A DNA stretch of 64,000 nucleotides from Okeania sp. SIO1F9. GTDB taxonomy: Bacteria > Cyanobacteriota > Cyanobacteriia > Cyanobacteriales > Microcoleaceae. Below the pieces are notes generated by a model. The model did no database searches. It saw only the letters and a list, made by a program, of their open reading frames with translations, and was not told the DNA's origin. Shown one piece after another: positions 7,531 through 52,837 of the stretch (within the stretch, counting starts at the first letter, position 1; each line of letters begins with the position of its first letter). Position numbers and translations under genes: made by a program. The DNA lies in the NCBI RefSeq assembly GCF_010672745.1, contig NZ_JAAHFW010000035.1, forward strand, positions 8,973-72,972. The letters are read 5' to 3'.

Positions 7531-8397
7531 TTAGCCAATTTCCGCAGTCATACTAATAACTGTTTCCACAGTTTTACCAGGTTCAGCAATTAATAAACTT
7601 TCCCCAGTATTCATAGCATTACGAGGTGCAGTCCAAGGTTCTAAACAATAAAAATCTTTACCTTTGACAGTCCAAAAAACTAGAGTAGAGTAATTACTAT
7701 CGTAGTTAATAGTTAACTTCAAATTACGACTTTTATCAGTAACTACTGCTGATTGTTTTGACAAATTAACAAACGCCCAATCAATTTCTTCGGCATTAAA
7801 ATCAAACTCTCCAGAAAAAGTATTAACAGTTTGTTCGCCCTTAAGTTTATACTCATTTGAAGGTAAATCAAACTCTAATTGACTCTTATCAGTTACAGCA
7901 AAATAAGGATGAATTCCTGTAGCAAATGGCATAGGTTTCTGAGACAAATTCGTGTGAGAATATCGCATCTCTAGAGTATTACCCCGCAATATATATGTAT
8001 AATTCAACTCAAAATTAAATGGATATACTGCCCGAGTTTCATCACTGCTGCGGAGAGTCACAGTAATACTTGCGCCATTCTCGGTAGACTGTTGTGTAAC
8101 TTCCCAAGGGAGGGTACGAGCAAAACCATGTTGCTTGATTTTGTAGCTTTCTCCATCTAACGTATAGGTATCGTCAACCACGTTGCCACAAATAGGGAAC
8201 AGTAAAGGAATACCACCGCGTACCGAAAGAGTGGGGTCAGCAAAACGTTCCTTATCAAGATAAAATATTTTTTGGTCTTGAGTACGCCAGTCAGTAATGA
8301 TGCCACCTCGTTCGGGAACAACAACTACCATAGACTGAGTAGTTTCATCAGAAAGGATATAGGGTTGATTTTGATTTTGTCCAACATTAGCAGGCAT
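7531..8397 (-). CDS. Aldose 1-epimerase family protein (galactose mutarotase-like)
   Basis: The 'GGIPLLFPICGN', 'HGFAR' and 'F.L' motifs are characteristic of aldose-1-epimerase/glucose-6-phosphate 1-epimerase. Confidence 0.7.
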   Translation of the reverse strand: MPANVGQNQNQPYILSDETTQSMVVVVPERGGIITDWRTQDQKIFYLDKERFADPTLSVRGGIPLLFPICGNVVDDTYTLDGESYKIKQHGFARTLPWEVTQQSTENGASITVTLRSSDETRAVYPFNFELNYTYILRGNTLEMRYSHTNLSQKPMPFATGIHPYFAVTDKSQLEFDLPSNEYKLKGEQTVNTFSGEFDFNAEEIDWAFVNLSKQSAVVTDKSRNLKLTINYDSNYSTLVFWTVKGKDFYCLEPWTAPRNAMNTGESLLIAEPGKTVETVISMTAEIG

Positions 8398-8941
8398 AGA
8401 TAATTTACCTAAAACAACTGCTATTAAATTCTCATAGAATAGTCTGAAAAACTATTCATTTTGGACATAATACGAATTTGATAAACGTTTGCTACAAATA
8501 TCTAGGGGATTTTTTAGGAGTCAGGAGTCAGGAGGCACGGAAGGAAGAGAATTTAGAAAGATTTGGCAATGGCGCTGAGGATGGAACATTTTTTTATACC
8601 GAACCCGAGCGGATTTTATATAAAATATTGCTTAAACCTTTAACCATATCATTTAAGTGAACTGAAAACAAGTCTAAACTTAGTGCTACTAATATCAGTT
8701 ACCAACATCAAAAAATTAGGTAGTGCATAAGTTCTGAACTTAAGGAAATATATCTAGCGATCGCAGGACTTATACAATAGACATCTGGTGATCATCAAAA
8801 ATAAAATCAATTATTGCATATAAATTATCAATTATTTCCCCCTACTCCCTACTTCCTACTCCCTCTTTTCCGGAGATAACTAATATATGAGGTCTAAACA
8901 CTAAATATATAAAACGTTATAGTTTTGATTGACTATATCAA

Positions 8942-10198
8942 TCATCGATAAACTGGTAAAGTAAACTGAAAACAACTACCATTATTTGGACTAGACTCTA
9001 CCCAAATTTTGCCGTAGTGGGATAAAATAATCCTTTGACATAAAGCTAGACCAATACCATAACCTTCTTGTGACTCATCACGCTTGAGTCTAAAACTATC
9101 TTCAAAAATACGACCGTGATTTTCTTTAGGAATACCAGGACCACTATCACAAATTGTCACTTGAATCTTTTGAGTAGTGCGATCGAGGATTAAAACCTGT
9201 ATTTTTCCTTGTTTAGGAGTATACTTTATGGCATTATCCAGCAAATTAACTATTACCTGACGTATTCTTTCTCGGTCAGCATAAACTAACGGTAAATCAT
9301 TAGGAATATCCGTTTTCAACTGCAAATCTTTTGACTTAAGTCGGTCTCGAAAACTAATTATCACCTCGCGACACAATGCCCCCAAATCTAATTTTTCAGG
9401 CTGAATTTGTAACTGCGTACTTTTGCCTCTTGGCCTCTCCAGAATATCTGTAATCATTCTGTCAATCACACGAACTTGGTAACGTGCCTGCTTAATTAGC
9501 CTTTCCATAAGAGTCGGAGAGCTTCTAGGAAACTCACTATTAACAGTTTTTTGAGTTGATTCTAAAGTCTCTAGAGCCAATGAAACTGCTGTCAGAGGGT
9601 TGCGTAAGTCATGAGCCAACATGGCCACAATACGGTCTTTAAATCTTAGTTGAGCTTGAAGTTGTTCCTTTTCCTGTTTGAGACGAAAAATTTCATCTGA
9701 CATTTGCATTAATTCTGCAGCACAGTCGATGGAATTAACAGATAATTTTTGATTAACAACCTGTTTAGACTGAGGTTGAGAGTTATGAGTGTGCCAATAT
9801 TCGGCGATGGAACGTTGCCAGCGTGGCCACCAATATTCCAATTTGGCAATTAAATCTGTACCAGTTAGGGTTTGTCTCGGTTCAGGATAAATTTTGAGTA
9901 GAGCAGGAGTAGCAATTAACTTGAAGTGCTCTGCCATATAGGGTTGCTCTTGTACGTCAATGACTTGAAATTCAAAGGGATAATCATAATCTTTTTCTAA
10001 ATTGTTGAGGGACTTACGAATGGCTTGAATTTGCTCTTGAGAGCCAGGACGTTTGTTGATAAACAATAAAATCTGTAAAAATCCCTGCTCATTACTATTA
10101 TTATTATTATTAGATTTTTCTGAAGACACCTGTAAAAAATTTCTAGGTAAGTGGGATAGGCTATTAGCATCTCTTTTGCAAATAGAATAATTTACCAT
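8942..10198 (-). CDS. sasA: Adaptive-response sensor histidine kinase SasA-like (N-terminal KaiB-like domain plus HisKA and HATPase)
   Basis: The N-terminal 'LLFINKRPGSQEQIQAIRKSL...EQPYMAEHFKLIATPALLKIYPEPRQTLTG' matches the KaiB-like fold of SasA. The H-box is 'MLAHDLRNPLTAVSLALETLE'. G-box: 'DSGPGIP...GYGIGL'. Confidence 0.65.
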   Translation of the reverse strand: MVNYSICKRDANSLSHLPRNFLQVSSEKSNNNNNSNEQGFLQILLFINKRPGSQEQIQAIRKSLNNLEKDYDYPFEFQVIDVQEQPYMAEHFKLIATPALLKIYPEPRQTLTGTDLIAKLEYWWPRWQRSIAEYWHTHNSQPQSKQVVNQKLSVNSIDCAAELMQMSDEIFRLKQEKEQLQAQLRFKDRIVAMLAHDLRNPLTAVSLALETLESTQKTVNSEFPRSSPTLMERLIKQARYQVRVIDRMITDILERPRGKSTQLQIQPEKLDLGALCREVIISFRDRLKSKDLQLKTDIPNDLPLVYADRERIRQVIVNLLDNAIKYTPKQGKIQVLILDRTTQKIQVTICDSGPGIPKENHGRIFEDSFRLKRDESQEGYGIGLALCQRIILSHYGKIWVESSPNNGSCFQFTLPVYR

Positions 10199-10643
10199 TT
10201 AGTAGTAATCCATATTGAATATTCCCGCCTACCTAGATACTTGGCCCTATGCTGTAAGCGGGGCGGGGTTTACCACTTACGATTAAAAAACTAATTGGAT
10301 GAATTTTATATTTTTCTATTAATGGCCTATAAAAGAAAATTAGTTTCTGAGATAATTTAATATCTATTTCATATTGTGACACTAATACTTTCAATTCGCG
10401 TTCTAGAGTATATTGAGATTATCTAATGCTGACTTGACATAATTGATATTTTATAGTAAGTGAATACAGATAAATCTTACCAGTGGTTATGATGACTCAA
10501 GTGAGGGAGAATTTTCTGGTAAGTGGTATACTGCAAGCTTAAATTTTATAGTAGTTGGAGGTTTGCTGAGGATACTCTCAGAACTTCATGTCTCAGTTGT
10601 CAAAAAAATGTAATTTTAAATTTTGAAATATTGCTAAAAATGG

Positions 10644-12296
10644 ATGAAGTTGGTTAGCTGGCAAAAAAATCAGTCCCTCAGAGTGGTGCTTGTGGCGGCG
10701 ATCGCCTTCTTTGTTCTCTGTCTATTATTTAATTTGCACCGCTATTATAGTTTTTACGCCTCTTACGACCAAGGTATATTTAACCAGGTCTTTTGGAATA
10801 GTATACACGGTCGTTTTTTTCAAAGTTCTCTCTCTTCTGCTCTTTCTACAAATGTAGTTCACCAAGGCCAAGTACCAGAAGTATACTATCACCGCTTAGG
10901 CCAACATTTTACTCCAGCTCTATTATTGTGGTTGCCAATATATGCTCTATTTCCATATCCTGTCACCCTAACAGTATTACAGGTCACATTAGTTACTGGT
11001 GCTGGTTTAGTTTTATACATTTTAGCTAGGCACTATCTCCAGCCACCCTTATCAGCCATAATTACCATTAGCTTCTATTGTGCTAATGCAGTAATTGGCC
11101 CTACTCTCGGAAATTTCCATGATATTTGTCAGATACCTATATTTGTATTTAGCTTACTACTGGCAATGGAAAAACGCTGGTGGCCTCTATTTTGGATTTT
11201 AGTAGTATTAATTTTAGCTGTTAGAGAAGATGCAGGAGTAGTTTTATTTGGAGTAGGATTCTATCTAATTTTGAGTAAACGCTACCCCAAAATAGGTTTA
11301 GCTATTTGTACTTTCAGTTTTGTTTATATGGTAGCTTTAACAAATCTGATTATGCCCCTATTTTCCGAAGACATTTCCCAGAGATTTATGATGGAAAGAT
11401 TCGGTCAATATGCAGAAGGAGATGAAGCTTCGACTTTGGAAATTATTTGGGGTATGATTAGTAACCCTTGGCGGTTAATAGCAGAAATTTTCACTCCATT
11501 TTTTGGCACTATCAAGTATTTATTAGGTCAATGGTTACCTTTAGCATTTGTACCTGCTGTTGCTCCCGCTTCTTGGATGATAGCAGGGTTTCCTTTACTG
11601 AAATTATTTTCTGCTCAAGGTTTGTCTGTACTGTCAATTACAATTCGCTACGCTATGACAGTAGTACCTGGATTATTTTACGGTGCAATTCTATGGTGGG
11701 GAAAGAGAGAATCAGAAGTTGAAAACTCACCACTGCCATCAGGAAAGTTTCGCCGTTTTTGGGTAATTTGTATTTGCTTGTCGCTATTTTTTACATTTAC
11801 ATCTAATCCTAATCGCACTTTTTATTTTTTAGTACCAGATTCAGTTAAACCTTGGGTTTATGTTCCCGCACACCAACAATGGCAACACGTTGGTAAAATG
11901 CGACCATTGTTAGGAAAAATTCCTGATGATGCAAGTGTGGCAGCAACAACTTATATTATTCCTCACTTATCAAGTCGTCGAGCAATTTTGCGGTTTCCTA
12001 GAATGCAATTTAGAAATGATGCTAGAGAGGTGGAAAAGGTGCAATATATTATTGTTGATCTGTGGCGGTTGAATAGATATCGGGTCGCATTTAAGAGCGA
12101 TCGCCAACGGTTAGAGAAAATTGTACCGCGAATTGAAGAACTTTATAATTCTGGTGAATATGGAATTACTGATTTTAGAGATGGTGTGGTTTTGATGGAA
12201 AAAGGAGTAGTTTCTGATTTGGATGCTCTGGATGGATGGGAAAATTTCCGCATGAAGAAGGAGTCAGGAGACAGGAGTCAGGAGTCAGTCAAGTAG
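10644..12296 (+). CDS. Polytopic integral membrane protein, DUF2079-like
   Basis: About 12 hydrophobic segments. An N-terminal 'YDQGIFNQVFWN' motif is reminiscent of DUF2079 membrane proteins. Confidence 0.45.
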   Translation: MKLVSWQKNQSLRVVLVAAIAFFVLCLLFNLHRYYSFYASYDQGIFNQVFWNSIHGRFFQSSLSSALSTNVVHQGQVPEVYYHRLGQHFTPALLLWLPIYALFPYPVTLTVLQVTLVTGAGLVLYILARHYLQPPLSAIITISFYCANAVIGPTLGNFHDICQIPIFVFSLLLAMEKRWWPLFWILVVLILAVREDAGVVLFGVGFYLILSKRYPKIGLAICTFSFVYMVALTNLIMPLFSEDISQRFMMERFGQYAEGDEASTLEIIWGMISNPWRLIAEIFTPFFGTIKYLLGQWLPLAFVPAVAPASWMIAGFPLLKLFSAQGLSVLSITIRYAMTVVPGLFYGAILWWGKRESEVENSPLPSGKFRRFWVICICLSLFFTFTSNPNRTFYFLVPDSVKPWVYVPAHQQWQHVGKMRPLLGKIPDDASVAATTYIIPHLSSRRAILRFPRMQFRNDAREVEKVQYIIVDLWRLNRYRVAFKSDRQRLEKIVPRIEELYNSGEYGITDFRDGVVLMEKGVVSDLDALDGWENFRMKKESGDRSQESVK

Positions 12297-27236: not shown

Positions 27237-28088
27237 ATGCAAACACTTGGCAATTACGAGCAAAAACTAATATTACTACCTCATCTAGCAACATTAGGTA
27301 TTGGTATCGAAGCAGGGGTACAAACAATCGACACCTATCCCTACTATGTCATCGGTATGCTGCATCTCATCAGTTCTGCTGTTTTGGGAGCAGGAGGTAT
27401 CTACCATGCAGTTTTAGGGCCGAAACAGCTTGATGAGAAAGGTTTTGGCTACGACTGGGAAGATGGCAACAAGATGACTACTATTTTGGGTATTCATCTA
27501 GTGCTGTTGGGGGTGGGAGCATCTCTATTGGTCATTAAAGCAACGGTTTTAGGTGGTATTTACGATCCACTAATAGAACAAGTAAGGTTAATACAGCCTA
27601 ATCTCGATCCCGTAAGAATTTTCGGTTATCTGTTTGGCTTTAGTCCTAATGGTTGGACAATTACTGGCATGGCTAGCGTAGATAATCTCGAAGATGTGGT
27701 CGGTGGTCATGTCTGGGTGAGCCTACTCTGCACTGTTGGTGGTCTATTTCACATTATTTCCAAACCTACGGGTTGGGCAAAACAAATACTAATTTGGTCC
27801 GGAGAGGCTTACTTGTCTTACAGTTTAGGGGCACTTGCGATCGCAGGATTTAGCGTAGCTGTCTTTATCTCCACCAACGAAACTGTTTATCCTAGCGTGT
27901 TTTATAGTCCTATTGGCAGCGACTCTGTGCGAACTGCTCTTGCTACCGTTCATGCTGGATTAGGTTTCCTAGCTTTGCTCGGACATTTATGGCACGCTTA
28001 CCGAGCGCGAGCTGCTACTCGTAAAGTATTTTATGGAACGTTCTTTGACTTTATGGCTAAGAATGTTACACCTATTACACCTGCTTGA
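27237..28088 (+). CDS. isiA: Chlorophyll-binding protein of the CP43/IsiA/Pcb family, N-terminally truncated copy (lacks helix I)
   Basis: '[21 protein letters not shown]...[27 protein letters not shown]' matches IsiA from helix II onward. The upstream in-frame sequence is not IsiA-like. Confidence 0.75.
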
Positions 28089-28137
28089 ATAGAAGTCAAA
28101 ATCTAAGTTCAATCATTATATAAGGAGAACAATAGTA

Positions 28138-29166
28138 ATGACTGTCGTAACTGATGATAATCTGCAAATCCCTTGGCGGGCAGGTAATGCTCGGCTTGTT
28201 AACCTATCTGGTAAGCTATTGGGCGCTCATGTAGCCCATGCTGGCTTAATTGTACTCTGGGCTGGAGCTATTACTTTGTTTGAAGTTGCCAACTTTGATT
28301 CCTCCCTACCAATGTACGAACAGGGCTTAATTGTACTGCCTAATCTAGCCCGCTTGGGATTTGGAGTTGGTGAAGGAGGTGTCATTGATACCTACCCCTA
28401 CTTTGTGATTGGGGTACTGCATTTGATTAGTTCGGCGTTTTTAGGAGCAGGTGGTATATTCCACGCTCTCAGAGGTCCAGCCAAACTAGAAGACAAATTT
28501 TCCTTCTTTGGCTATAGCTGGGATAATCCAGGTAAAATGACAACTATTCTAGGTATACATTTAGTCTTATTAGGAATCGGAGCATTTTTACTTGTAGCAA
28601 AAGCGATTGCATTTGGAGGGTTATACGATCCAGTAGTTCAAAATGTACGAGTAATATCAAGTCCCACTCTAAATCCTACTACCATTTTCGGCTACTTCTT
28701 CGGTACAGAAGGACGTTTCTGGCTGGCTGGTGTTAACTCTTTAGAAGATGTAGTAGGCGGTCACATTTGGATTGGTGCTATCTGCATTTTGGGTGGTATC
28801 TGGCATATTCGCACCGTACCCTTTGACTGGGCTAAAGGCTTATTTGTCTGGTCAGGAGAAGCATATTTGTCTTACAGTATTGGCGCAGTCAGCTTAATGG
28901 CATTTGTCGCAACATTGTTTGTGTCCGTTAACTCCCTGGTATTTCCCACAGAATTTTTCGGACCAACTTTGACTCTGGTGTTCGATCGCTTTCCTGTGTT
29001 TGTTAGTACTGATGGAGCCTTGACTGCAAGAGTATGGTTGGCAAATGCTCACTTCTGGTTAGGATTTTTCTTCCTGCAAGGACATATATTCCACGCCCTC
29101 CGGGCAGCAGGTTATAGCTTCACCGAAGGCAGAGTAGTCACATTTACAAGAGGTCAAGTAAGCTAG
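28138..29166 (+). CDS. isiA: Iron-stress-induced chlorophyll-binding protein IsiA (CP43')
   Basis: Full-length, 342 aa, six helices. '[37 protein letters not shown]' is the classic IsiA N-terminus. Confidence 0.85.
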
Positions 29167-29168
29167 TT

Positions 29169-30734
29169 ATGACTGTAACTAAATCAAATCCATTAAAGTT
29201 TTTAGGCTTTTCCACAGATAATAATGTTGATGTTGCGAACTATGTTAGTGATTCCCAAGAACCTTATTCTTGGTGGGCAGGTAATTTTCGCTTTGTTAAC
29301 TTGTCTGGAAAATTATTGGGAGCGCACATTGCTCATGCAGGGTTGATCGTACTCTGGGCTGGAGCAATGACTCTGTTTGAGCTATCAAAATTCGATCCTA
29401 GTCTAGCCATGTACGACCAAGGACTGATTTTGCTGCCCCACATGGCGACTCTGGGTATAGGGGTTGGCGCAAATGGTGAAATTATTGATACTTATCCCTA
29501 CTTTGCTATTGGTGTTATCCATCTCGTTAGTTCAGCAATTCTAGGCGCTGGTGGCATTTTCCATGCCGTGCTTGGACCTGACAAACTTGATGAAAAGGGA
29601 TTTGGCTATCAGTGGAATGATGGCAAGAAAATGACTACTATCCTTGGTATTCATCTACTGCTACTGGGGATGGGAGCATTTTTGCTAGTAGCCAAAGCTA
29701 TGTATTTTGATGGTTTGTATGACCCGGCGATCGCCAATGTGCGACTGATTACTGAACCCACTCTCAACCCACAGACTATCTTCGGTTACCTCGTCGGTAT
29801 CACCCCTGATGGCTGGACGTTGAAGGGTATGGCTGCTGTCAACTCTTTAGAAGATGTGATAGGCGGTCACATTTGGATTGGTAGTATCTGTATTCTGGGT
29901 GGTCTCTGGCATATTAATACTGCTCCTACAAAATGGGCTAAGGGTCTTTTTGTCTGGTCGGGAGAGGCATATCTTGCCTATAGTCAGGCAGCTCTGGCTT
30001 ATATGGGTTTTTTCGCAGCCTACTTTGTCTGGGTGAATGATACAGTCTATCCTTCAGTATTTTATGGTCCTGTAGGTGTGACTAATGTTGATGGTACAAT
30101 CACTCCTCGCACCTGGCTGATGTTGTTCCAACTCATCTTTGCCTGTCTGCTACTGGCAGGTCACTTTTGGCATGGTCTCAGAGCTAGAGCGATCGCGAGT
30201 GGATTTGTCTTCAGTAATATGAAGTTCAATCCCGGTGCCCTCTATGGAGACACTCAGTTTAATAACGAATCTCTAGTGACTGGTATTGTACAGCCTTTCC
30301 AGAACGATCCCCAGTTGGGGAATTTGGCAACCCCAATTAATTCCAGTCAGCTTACCATCACTTGGGTTAAGAACTTACCCATTTATCGGAATGGTTTATC
30401 CCCTATTGCACGGGGTCTGGAAATTGGCATGGCTCACGGATACCTATTATTAGGGCCGTTCCTCAAACTCGGACCATTGCGCAACACCGACCAAGCTCTT
30501 CTAGCTGGAGGTGGTAGTGCATCTGGCTTAGTAGTGATTTTAAGTATCTGTCTGTTTGTTTATGGGGCGGTAGTGTTTCAAGGTTCTAGTAAACCAAGAG
30601 GCGTTTTGCCGGAGAACCTGCAAACTTATCAGGAATGGAGTCTATTTACTTCTGGTTTTCTCATTGGAGGAATAGGCGGTGTGATTTTTGCCTGCTTTAT
30701 CCTTATAGAAATCGGGCGATCGGGAATTTTATAA
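29169..30734 (+). CDS. IsiA (CP43')-PsaL fusion protein
   Basis: The N-terminal ~340 aa are IsiA-like. The C-terminal ~170 aa carry PsaL signatures ('[38 protein letters not shown]'). Such fusions are known in Anabaena 7120 (all4002) and Leptolyngbya JSC-1. Confidence 0.8.
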
Positions 30735-34640: not shown

Positions 34641-34882
34641 TTTTTCTTGAGTTTGACAACAATTTTATTCTATAGCATTCTATATTCACTAACGCCTGAA
34701 AGTTTACATTAGGCATCTCCAATAATCAAAAATAAAATCAATTATCATACATAAATCATCAATTATTTCCCCCTACTCCCTACTCCCTACTCCCTACTCC
34801 CTCTTTTCCGGAGATGTCTATTTTTGAGAGTTGAATAGAGTGTAAGATGGTTAATCAGTTGTTGAATATAACTAAGATTATT

Positions 34883-36280
34883 ATGGCTCAGTCTCTAAAC
34901 GATCACCTTCACCTTTCTATCATTGCATGTGGTCACGCTGGTTCCGGTAAGTCCACCACCCTATGACACTTGATCTACAAATGCGGCTCGATTACCAAGC
35001 GTCAGATATCTACGTTTGAGAAAGAGTCTCTTGAAATGGGAAAGGGGTCTTCCAAGTATGCCTGGGTCATGGATAGAACTCCGGAGGAACGCGAGCGAGG
35101 TATGACCCTAGAGGTGAACTACTGGAGAATAAAAACGGAGAAATATTTCTGCCATCTCATTGATGTTCCCCATGCCATTGATCAAGTGATTAGTGCGGCC
35201 TCCCAAGCTGATGCTGCGATACTCATGGTTGATGCCAAAAAAGGAAGCTTTGAAGCTGGCTATGCTATGGACGGACAAACTCGCCAACACGCTTTCATAC
35301 TCTATTGCCTTGGTGTCAAGCAGCTTATTGTTGCTGTCAATCAGATGGATGCTGTTAACTATGACCAAGAGCGCTACAACGAGATTGTTCTAGAAATGAG
35401 TGAACTTCTCAAAAAAATTGGCTACAATCCGAAAGCAATTAGGTTTATTCCTATCTCTGGATGGACAGGTGAGAACTTCTTGGAACCAGCAAGTAATATG
35501 AGTTGGTATCAAGGTACTCATATTGAGATGATGAACAGGTACGGGAATTTGGTACGAGCTTCTTTTAAAACCCTCTTCGAGGCTATTAATACCTTTCTTC
35601 TACCTTCAGATGACTCTGGACCCATGCGTACCTGTGTCTCTAGAGTATTTCAACCCGGGGACGACCATAACCTACAGATTGGTAATGGTCGATTTTCATT
35701 TATGGGACATGTTGAACGTGGAATCCTTAAGCCGGGAGATGAAGTTGTCTTTTACCCCACTCACACCAACTCCAACCCTTGCACAGCTAGAATTACCAAT
35801 CTAGAGATTAGCCATGAGGAGACCACCTCCGCTAAGAAGGGTAACATTGTCAATTTTATTCTCGATGGTATTTCCCATGCTAACTCGCCCCATGTTGGTG
35901 ATGTCATGGTTCATAAATCCGACTCCTCTATTGGCAGGATTCGGAGCTTCCAAGCTCAGGTTATTGTGCAATCTCATTGTGGTTCGATTGAAGTTGGCTA
36001 CCAGACCACAGTCCTTATCAATAGTGCCCAGGTTGTAGTCCGCCTCACTGCTATCGAGCGTCAACTAGATAGAAGGGGTCGCACCATCGCTGAGAACCCC
36101 GCTAAGATTGAGGAAGGAGATGGTGCCATTGTTACATTTGAAGTCCAAGAACCTTTAACGGCAGAGCCATTCAAGGATTGTTCAGGACTGGGTCGGTTGA
36201 TTCTGATGGACGGTAATAAGAATTCTGAGGGCGTTGCCAATTTAATAGTTGGTGTCATCCGAGAGGTTGAACGTGTTTGA
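34883..36280 (+). pseudogene. Eukaryote/archaeon-type translation elongation factor 1-alpha (eEF1A/aEF1A)-like gene with degenerate GTPase motifs and an in-frame TGA at 34964-34966
   Basis: '[76 protein letters not shown]...' aligns residue-for-residue with eEF1A ('[61 protein letters not shown]'). The G-motifs are altered: GHVDSGKST to [9 protein letters not shown], DAPGH to DVPHA, and NKMD to NQMD. Domains II and III are recognisable through to 'GVIREVERV'. GC is higher than in the flanks and there is no HIP1 site. Confidence 0.7.
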
Positions 36281-36496
36281 CCTACCCATTGACATCCTCT
36301 CCCGCTAAATCGAAGATTATAGCGGGAGATTCCCAAACATCGCTATTTGGGTTCCGGGTTTAAGTAGCAATTGTGCAAGAAACCCCGTTAAGGTATTTGC
36401 GATCGCGCTCTCCAATTAAACCTCTCTGAGAAAAAACCCTGAGACCCTTGATTTATCGTTATAAATTTCTGCACCAAATAAACTACAGTTTATTAA

Positions 36497-50588: not shown

Positions 50589-51200
50589 AAAGAAACGTAA
50601 GTATTTAGCCGTCAGCTTTCAGCTCCATTAGAACTAATGACTATAGCCTTTAAAGCAGAAGTTACCATTGACAGATTTTATCTAATTAAAAATATGAATT
50701 AAAAGTTTCCCTAGTAACTTCTAAAGTCTTAAAAAATGCTTACTTCATTTATTAATCAAGATGAGAGCTGACCACTAATCACTGTTTGTGGAGCATTCAG
50801 GCACGGAAATCCTTATACCAATTTCATAAACTTGAGCTACTTAGGTTTGGAGTAGTCAGTAGTCAGTAGTCAGTAGTCAGGAGGTAAGGTGAGTAGCCTT
50901 ACTTTTTGAATTTGGTATTACAAAGAAACAAAGAATATGGAAGAGATAAAAAAGTAGAAACTTGCTCAATAGACATATAGATATCTCCAGAAAAGAGATA
51001 ACAGGTAACAGGAAGAAATAATAGAAATCATCAATTATTTCTCCCTACTCCCCTACTCCCCTACTCCCTGCTCCCTACTCCCTACTCCCTAAATTGGGAT
51101 TAATCAACCCATTAGCCGTACCAAAAAGATTAATTGGACTCTTACCATCAGTAATTAAAACACTCTGAAGACCAAGCCCCTACAACAACCTCGCCTGCAT

Positions 51201-52837
51201 TTATGGGCCAGCTTGAGCGATCGCCCGAATTGTCTCAGCCCCCAAAGCCTCCACTTTTTGCTGAAACTCAGTAGCAGTAATTTCAGCCATTTGCCTTGCC
51301 TTCTCAATCTCTAAATTATTCAGTGTCTGCTGATGGGCTAACTCAGTCTCCTGACGCGCCCTCAACTGAGCCATCTCAGCCTCATGGCGAATCCGTGCTG
51401 CTTCTACTTCCTGCTGCGCCAAATTCACCGCCAACTGGCCTTGAAAAGGAGATAACATATAAGCTTGAGGTCCATTGACTAATTTTAGTTCCCCACTTTG
51501 AACATCCCGTACATATATACCTTCATTTTTGTCTAGGGGAATAGCCTGAAGTTTTTCTAATACTTCTAATTCCACTGGGGGAATATAATCTCTTGGCCCA
51601 GTAATCATCCATAAATCTCCTGGTTGCCGAGTAATAACGTTTGCTCCTGTTCCCTCGGTGAAAGTTTCCTCAACTCTGATTAGGAGTGCTTCTTGTTCAC
51701 CAAGAATATAGACCTTTTTAATTCCTGTTTCTAAATCTTCTCCTGGGTGCAAAAAGAAAGATGTTCTGCCCTGACGCACTTCTTTCATACCCCACTGCGG
51801 TTTACCATCTGCATCTATGGGATTAGTTACTATGCACCATTCGCGATCGCTTAAAGTAGTGATTTTGACTTCTCCCACTACTTCTTCATAAACGTCGGGA
51901 ATATGAATTTCAGCATCTGCAAAAGTAACTAACTATTCATATCCCGCTTTGCGTTGCTGACCAAAAATATCAGTAAAAGTCCGTTTTGCTTTTAGATGTA
52001 GTGCTTGACGTTCGGTTAATACATAGGCATCAATAGTATCGACAATTTCTTCATCTACTCCAGGCAAATAAGCACCTTCTTCCCTGACCAACCATTATTC
52101 CCCAGTTCTACGTCTGTTACCTTGACGATCTATACAATTTTGTCGTGCCAGCAGTCGTAAGGCTTGGTTAGGTTTAATTATTTTAGCTATAACTGTGACT
52201 ACCACTTCAACTTCTACCCTGGGAGTGTAAGTTCCTGGCCCCTCAAATAACCATTCATCCCCTGTCGTACGAGTGACAGTTTGAGACTCTCCTGCAACGA
52301 TAACTGTATCAGTAAAATCTCGTATTGCTTTGAGACGTAGAGTTTGGTTTGTGTCAATTACTTGTAGTTGAGTTACATCTTCTTCGAGTATTTCTCCTGG
52401 ATATAGTGGGAAAGGGTCTTGAGCAAAGCGAATTTCCAGATCGCCATATTTGAGTCTAATTTAACCATACTCATCGGCCACAAGTTGATCTGAACTATAG
52501 CAATGTGCGCTGGCATATTTACACATTATTTTTTGTACACCTTTTCTAAAATGCACTTTGAACTGGGCCTTGTAAATACCTGAGCGCTCATTGCTATATT
52601 TCTTAGTACAGGGTTAGCTGCTACACAATAATGGCGAGGTGGAACTACAATTGTCAGTTGTGGTTGTCAGACTAACCTTTCTGCATCTCCAAGGGTAATG
52701 GTTTGAGGGCCTATTTCTAGTCTGATAACACCAGTGTTATTGTCAAGAACATGAATATACTGTTGTGGCTTCAGGAGAATTATACCATTGTTCTCTATTG
52801 TAATTGGATATTCTGTGGTACTTTTTATTTTACTCAT
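51201..52837 (-). pseudogene. Major Vault Protein (MVP) homologue, pseudogenised (in-frame TGA, TAA and TAG plus at least one frameshift). The shoulder domain is apparently absent.
   Basis: Minus-strand translation from the ATG at 52837 reads 'MSKIKSTTEYPITIENNGIILLKPQQYIHVLDNNTGVIRLEIGPQTITLGDAERLV*QPQLTIVVPPRHYC...', followed by '[28 protein letters not shown]...[12 protein letters not shown]...[26 protein letters not shown]...ALHLKAKRTFTD...GYE*LVTFADAEIHIPDVYEEVVGEVKITTLSDREWCIVTNPIDADGKPQWGMKEVRQGRTSFFLHPGEDLETGIKKVYILGEQEALLIRV...QAIPLDKNEGIYVRDVQSG' and a coiled-coil cap-helix ending 'EALGAETIRAIAQAGP'. This closely matches vertebrate MVP ('[50 protein letters not shown]', '[29 protein letters not shown]', '[22 protein letters not shown]', '[22 protein letters not shown]', 'MTEAIGPSTIRDLAVAGP'). 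Confidence 0.7.

Follow-up and report, generated by a model that had tools for sequence, protein, structure and literature searches.

Remains of a major vault protein gene in an Okeania genome

In a 64,000-nucleotide stretch of the Okeania sp. SIO1F9 genome (positions 8,973 to 72,972 of contig NZ_JAAHFW010000035.1; hereafter the window), the minus strand between 51078 and 52837 carries the remains of a gene for the major vault protein (MVP). We interpret this segment as a pseudogene of the cyanobacterial MVP gene that still occupies its ancestral chromosomal position, a reading to which we assign a probability of roughly 93%. An original prediction, made without database searches, had described a decayed MVP homolog at 51201 to 52837, with similarity running from the first N-terminal repeat to the C-terminal cap region. 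Both the decay and the span of similarity are borne out, as is the upper boundary; the lower boundary must be moved, since the relic reaches about 120 nucleotides further, to 51078.

Identity of the relic

Translation in three frames places the start of the gene (ATG 52837 to about 52598) in one frame and the remainder (about 52496 to the end) in a second. Once the intervening insertion, a miniature inverted-repeat transposable element (MITE), is excised, a single reading frame of 553 codons with six internal stops results. A repaired conceptual translation, joining 52837..52598 to 52496..51078 with the stops masked, aligned collinearly with residues 5-410 and 735-850 of rat MVP (E=2e-159), at about 55% identity as judged by eye from the alignment. 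Repeats 1-8 are retained by alignment to the rat repeats and repeat 9 is deleted; of the cap region there remain the final third of the helix and the beginning of the ring (rat 735-850), with two stops inside. The similarity extends beyond the coiled coil, as repeats 1-8 align and Pfam Vault families score above threshold. Eukaryotic MVP (rat and human; PDB 4V60, 4HL8 and 7PKZ) is thus collinear with the relic over repeats 1-8 and again from the end of the cap helix into the cap ring; the relic differs in being bacterial, interrupted and without an equivalent of rat residues ~411-734.

In place of the single open reading frame (ORF) of ~850-930 amino acids (aa) that is the norm for MVP, the relic has six stops, a 101-nucleotide insertion and a 316-codon deletion. 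Its longest minus-strand ORF encodes 225 aa, matches solved MVP structures (E=7e-63) and exceeds the Pfam gathering scores of Vault (PF01505; 59 bits), Vault_2 (39 bits) and Vault_4 (35 bits); two mini-ORFs upstream of it also match Pfam Vault. An NCBI entry identical to the 225-aa ORF is named 'MULTISPECIES: hypothetical protein [Okeania]'. The longest ORF on the minus strand from 51879 to 52837 has 56 aa, in agreement with the ~1 kb predicted to hold no ORF of 60 aa or more. The Pfam MVP_shoulder domain (PF11978) is absent from the window and falls within the deletion; it is present in the intact MVP of Okeania sp. SIO3I5 (locus L053; 181 bits), as well as in MVP fragments on a metagenomic Okeania-type contig (L004) and in Okeania sp. 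SIO2F4 (L061).

The whole relic is identical in three independent Okeania assemblies (GCA_003838225.1, GCA_010672625.1 and GCA_010672505.1). Contig RCBZ01000114.1 of the first matches the window with 100% identity. The other two assemblies come from other samples; one of these (L001), compared base by base, begins to differ only ~2.5 kb downstream. Cyanobacterial genes flank the relic, and synteny with other Okeania contigs exceeds 9 kb. Sites of the highly iterated palindrome HIP1, which had been predicted within the gene, are indeed there (51217 and 51843), and the density of two in 1.76 kb matches that of the 64-kb window, which has 41; the G+C content of 37% is that of the rest of the window. 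Together with the MITE and a heptamer array of the short tandemly repeated repetitive (STRR) type embedded in it, the HIP1 density identifies the relic as resident cyanobacterial DNA.

Lesions

We mapped the lesions against intact orthologs by tblastn, blastn and codon alignment (Table 1). All six stops are single-base nonsense changes, each at a conserved residue. The original prediction had placed stops at conserved Phe/Leu, Glu and Trp codons, which holds for codons 57, 214, 268, 512 and 519; the stop at codon 92 replaces a conserved Gln. No small insertions or deletions were found in the relic when it was mapped against the intact orthologs.

The shoulder domain had been suspected to be deleted. 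It is, and the deletion is larger than supposed: 948 bp are missing in frame, corresponding to nucleotides 9457-10404 of the SIO3I5 locus (approximately residues 487-802 of 926) and to approximately residues 411-734 of rat MVP. The loss comprises the remainder of repeat 8, all of repeat 9 and of the shoulder domain, and about half of the cap helix (its first ~90 residues). Also missing from the window copy is an acidic loop of 20-55 aa that follows the motif 'PGEYLE' in the closest relatives. At the 3' end the last codons of the relic (..NPNLGSRE*) come from the heptamer array; the L004 copy ends in the same way, and those of SIO3I5 and SIO2F4 differ from it (..NPVMPQVNNE*). Two further STRR-type heptamer arrays lie in the window, AGTAGTC at 50851-50880 and CCCTACT at ~34770-34805.

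The frameshift predicted near 52500 is real as a change of frame; its cause is an inserted MITE and not a small indel. The insert has terminal inverted repeats of 14 nucleotides or longer (TAGCAATGAGCGCT...AGCGCACATTGCTA) and forms a hairpin when folded (z=-3.9); SIO3I5, L004 and SIO2F4 have an empty orthologous site. Members of the same family, 99-103 bp long with conserved ends (TAGCAATGAGCGCTCAGGTATTTACAA...), were found in 13 metagenome contigs (L064-L076; JAAUX/JAAUY series) at about ten distinct sites, with TA on both sides every time. Given the inverted repeats, the TA duplication, the multiple copies at unrelated sites and the empty site in relatives, the insert is a MITE; terminal repeats, target duplication, hairpin fold and multi-copy family are all features that it shares with other TA-duplicating MITEs. 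We take it to be a non-autonomous derivative of an IS630/Tc1-mariner-type transposon, an assignment made from the TA duplication only; no autonomous partner transposase was identified among the copies in the 13 contigs.

Table 1. Features of the window discussed in the text
Feature	Position	Strand	Remarks
MVP pseudogene, whole	51078..52837	minus	ATG at 52837 to final TAG at 51080-51078
In-frame TGA, codon 57	52667..52669	minus	TTA (Leu) in other Okeania copies, Leu in cyanobacteria; Phe in rat MVP
MITE (99 bp) with duplicated TA target, 101-nt insertion	52497..52597		shifts frame by +2
In-frame TAA, codon 92	52461..52463	minus	CAA (Gln) in relatives and rat MVP
In-frame TAA, codon 214	52095..52097	minus	GAA (Glu) of conserved GEEWLV motif
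In-frame TAG, codon 268	51933..51935	minus	Trp of conserved G(D/E)EWLVT motif
225-aa ORF, GTG start	51201..51878	minus	repeats 6-8 fused to last third of cap helix
Junction of 948-bp in-frame deletion	51445..51446	minus	TT microhomology
In-frame TAA, codon 512	51201..51203	minus	Glu in relatives; ends the 225-aa ORF
In-frame TAG, codon 519	51180..51182	minus	GAG (Glu) in relatives; Gln in rat
STRR-type heptamer array, CTCCCTA x7	51041..51091		overlaps 3' end of relic
Ser/Thr kinase-WD40 gene, intact, 792 aa	52901..55279	minus	63 nt upstream of relic, same strand
eEF1A-like gene	34883-36283	plus	in-frame TGA at 34964-34966, codon 28

Orthologous loci, timing and alternative explanations

An intact ortholog is found in Okeania sp. 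SIO3I5, where a 926-aa MVP gene (8001-10778 of locus L053) encodes all five MVP Pfam domains and is 84-94% identical to the window copy at the nucleotide level. The two loci have a kinase-WD40 gene, a Tmemb_14 gene, a DUF815 ATPase gene and a TerB-like gene as common neighbors, and the relic lies between the first two of these. The window copy thus carries disabling lesions relative to an intact ortholog at the same chromosomal position, as is characteristic of a unitary pseudogene. A second intact relative (L077) is 91% identical, and the filamentous cyanobacteria with a full-length MVP number at least 50 genomes at the species level. No full-length protein of the window's own Okeania species, which would indicate a second intact copy, appeared among the close matches of a full-length protein search. 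We also considered whether a 55-aa insertion in the SIO3I5 protein might be a transposon scar, making that copy a pseudogene as well, and rejected this because an acidic loop of variable length occupies the position throughout the subclade.

Two other Okeania copies are broken in different ways. On the L004 contig, MVP has a stop at codon 9, a W268C replacement and an IS605-type TnpB in place of residues 335-640. The SIO2F4 copy shares the codon-9 stop, has lost 1 nucleotide at about codon 134 and carries, behind the acidic loop, an inserted reverse-transcriptase/TnpB element. The window copy has none of the lesions of these two, nor do they have any of its own; MVP has therefore been lost independently at least twice within Okeania, and its decay in the genus is recurrent. 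The TnpB of L004 (8894-10093) interrupts MVP at the acidic-loop site, the same site as the SIO2F4 element. The latter (L061 1257-2557) is an odd juxtaposition in its own right: it encodes an RVT_1 reverse transcriptase, and its last ORF runs into a TnpB/Cas12f-like TNB domain.

The parent gene would have encoded a protein of ~880-930 aa, made up of nine vault repeats at the N terminus plus a shoulder domain and a cap-helix coiled coil; in animals, proteins of this architecture self-assemble into the vault shell of 78 subunits. The copy in this lineage has been knocked out, with six nonsense substitutions, a frame-shifting MITE and a 948-bp deletion that takes away the shoulder as well as the portion of the coiled coil on which assembly depends, and it is probably now drifting. 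Elsewhere an open frame is the norm and the gene is strongly maintained, as indicated by the low ratio of non-synonymous to synonymous substitution rates (dN/dS) of 0.04-0.10 between intact MVP genes of different genera. The ratio between the window and SIO3I5 copies, 0.17, lies above that range.

Several observations weigh against the pseudogene reading, or at least against a long-dead gene. Stops aside, conservation of the sequence remains high. The value of 0.17 is below that of the intact flanking genes in the same pair (0.22-0.38), and non-synonymous changes polarized with outgroups number 44 on the window branch (38 missense and six stops) versus 35 on the branch of the intact SIO3I5 copy; the numbers in both comparisons are small. 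Small frameshifting indels are lacking, and the large deletion, being in frame, has preserved an ORF of 225 aa, which NCBI lists as a protein. These sequence comparisons therefore suggest that inactivation was recent or that fragments are still weakly constrained, and the dN/dS value and the branch counts point to a knock-out that is recent relative to the split of the strains. Six stops among 44 non-synonymous changes are slightly more than neutral drift would be expected to produce (P=0.04-0.12 under a conservative model in which all changes are neutral), and the excess becomes less probable still if most missense changes predate the knock-out. It is marginal, a small-number oddity, and we do not take it as evidence for a special mechanism.

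The features just listed raise the question of whether the 225-aa ORF, or another fragment, is a functional truncated protein composed of repeats 6-8 and the end of the cap helix. Its frame is open across the deletion and identical in three assemblies, the overall dN/dS relative to SIO3I5 is low, and it passes Pfam thresholds. However, the three assemblies are identical over the whole 9 kb, which makes their identity uninformative about selection. Both ends of the ORF are also accidents of decay: its internal GTG would not be the start had a TAG not replaced the conserved Trp codon 18 codons upstream, and its terminal TAA stands in place of a conserved Glu codon, beyond which 41 more codons are homologous and another stop follows. 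Such a product would have no shoulder and would be short of about half the coiled coil, and no protein of this architecture from any other genome was found in protein searches. We consider a working mini-MVP improbable. The relic is most likely functionless and the 225-aa ORF a by-product of stop placement; we infer that none of the leftover ORFs yields a working product.

There is still less to recommend the idea that a living gene is expressed by programmed recoding, through read-through or suppression of stop codons. Each of the six point lesions turns a sense codon into a stop by a clean change of one base, all in one frame, and stops are mildly over-represented relative to missense changes; yet all three stop codons are used (one TGA, three TAA and two TAG), neighboring genes end at ordinary stops, orthologs have sense codons at all six positions, the 101-nucleotide insertion breaks the frame, and the deletion takes domains required for assembly. 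We regard the chance of this as negligible.

Equally negligible is the possibility that draft-assembly errors produced the stops and frame change, or that the segment is contaminating DNA from eukaryotes, where MVP is best known: identity across three independent assemblies means that the lesions are not read or assembly errors, and the cyanobacterial flanks and synteny with Okeania contigs exclude contamination, as the original prediction had supposed from the HIP1 and STRR context, with nearest relatives that are cyanobacterial MVPs (75-90% identity, versus ~55% by eye for rat MVP) and a MITE and G+C content that also fit a resident segment.

Vault proteins in bacteria and neighbors of the relic

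The original prediction goes too far in calling bacterial MVP homologs rare. Scanning species-representative genomes with a trimmed three-sequence alignment recovered 59 species-level loci, about 50 of them with an open frame of 850-950 aa. The cyanobacterial genera represented include Moorena, Symploca, Caldora, Microcoleus, Oscillatoria, Laspinema, Microseira, Aerosakkonema and Hormoscilla. A full-length protein query returned 2634 proteins at E<=1e-30, and the best 120 of these are all 860-932 aa long with all five MVP Pfam domains. A query with the 225-aa ORF had returned only 14 matches, all fragments, as if cyanobacterial MVPs were generally broken; the genome scan and the full-length query identify this as a sensitivity artefact of the short query. 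A few members of the family are interrupted: the MVP of Moorena bouillonii PNG (L023) is broken by a gap between residues 476 and 600 and by a stop, and two others (L039, Hormoscilla, and L060) have one frame change each, which could be long-read assembly errors.

Full-length MVPs 69-75% identical to the cyanobacterial query also occur in metagenome-assembled genomes labelled Thiomargarita, Ca. Parabeggiatoa and Thiotrichaceae (L045, L049, L050 and L052) and in others from Anaerolineae (L047, L054 and L055). That giant sulfur bacteria and Anaerolineae have them suggests that the gene has moved between filamentous bacteria of different phyla, with mis-binning a possible alternative.

Naming in the databases is inconsistent. 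The same proteins are called 'colicin uptake protein' at NCBI and 'major vault protein' at JGI; the intact 926-aa SIO3I5 protein has no match in NCBIfam, where no model recognizes MVP, which accounts for the uninformative NCBI names. The 'colicin uptake' annotation was noted by Daly et al. (2013; PMC3762200), who described three cyanobacterial MVPs and suggested transfer from a eukaryote; the opposite direction was argued by Sokolskyi (2019; bioRxiv 10.1101/872010). The bacterial homologs treated in these papers include MVP-like proteins of Myxococcales, Cytophagales/Saprospirales and Herpetosiphon, which are only ~16% identical to the cyanobacterial ones (Daly et al., 2013). The relic belongs to the same family and orthologous lineage as the cyanobacterial MVPs (for example Moorena producens 3L / 'Lyngbya majuscula' F4Y3B4), and intact MVPs of other genera are 73-79% identical in aa sequence to its retained parts. 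It differs from them in being dead (six stops, MITE and 948-bp deletion) and in lacking the acidic loop after 'PGEYLE'. It is thus a new dead member of a family known since 2013 and widespread in filamentous cyanobacteria. Published work on whether cyanobacterial MVP forms the closed half-vault shell of 39-fold symmetry consists of in-silico docking (PMC3762200). The intact proteins presumably assemble into vault-like shells.

The relic adjoins a Ser/Thr kinase-WD40 gene, as had been predicted. An ortholog of this gene lies directly upstream of MVP, at a distance of 80-135 nucleotides, in L051 (5404-7917), L056 (5331-7865) and L057 (609-3125), and about 1.1 kb upstream in SIO3I5 (L053 4473-6851). 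It is a neighbor of MVP only in the Okeania-containing subclade, the same one that has the acidic loop, and the association is suggestive of a functional pairing there. In the window the kinase-WD40 gene is intact and MVP decayed. When all flanking ORFs of the 59 MVP loci were clustered, no universally conserved neighbor emerged, and neither TEP1 nor vPARP was found. Matches of WD40 repeats to the Pfam TEP1 beta-propeller were rejected as a link to vaults, as dozens of generic WD40 families match, many with higher scores. One could speculate that MVP and the kinase-WD40 protein, which loosely recalls TEP1, form a functional two-gene module in the subclade, and that the repeated, mechanistically different MVP knock-outs in three Okeania lineages, together with the apparent excess of nonsense changes in the window copy, reflect selection against the vault protein instead of neutral decay; we think this unlikely. 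An Rfam gathering scan of the window detected no vault RNA, its only hits being three IsrR matches. These lie on the minus strand at 27456-29790 (119-131 bits, ~1.1 kb apart), and would imply three tandem isiA-type genes, each with an antisense RNA.

The eEF1A-like gene that the original prediction had noted 15 kb from the relic is present, giving the window two eukaryote-type genes. Of the proteins in the structural database (PDB), eukaryotic eEF1A1/2 match it best (E=1e-99) and archaeal aEF1A less well (1e-81). In a search of 5.8 billion sequences its only close relatives were those of its own Okeania cluster, the rest being eukaryotic eEF1A at ~40% identity. Read by eye against the alignment to those PDB matches, the GTPase motifs G3 and G4 seem degenerate (DVPHA in place of DAPGH, and NQMD in place of NKMD). 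From these comparisons the gene appears to be a divergent, Okeania-restricted protein of eukaryotic type, and with its in-frame TGA it is possibly decaying too. It is the more unusual of the two eukaryote-type genes and, being highly divergent and restricted to Okeania, merits a study of its own.

Taken alone the MVP relic matters little, and its largest fragment is listed in databases as a 'hypothetical protein'. Full-length MVPs under strong purifying selection are nonetheless widespread in filamentous cyanobacteria, yet go by the name 'colicin uptake protein', and the role of MVP in bacteria is a neglected question. In Okeania, natural knock-outs stand beside intact alleles at the same locus, which offers a ready comparison for the role of a bacterial vault protein.

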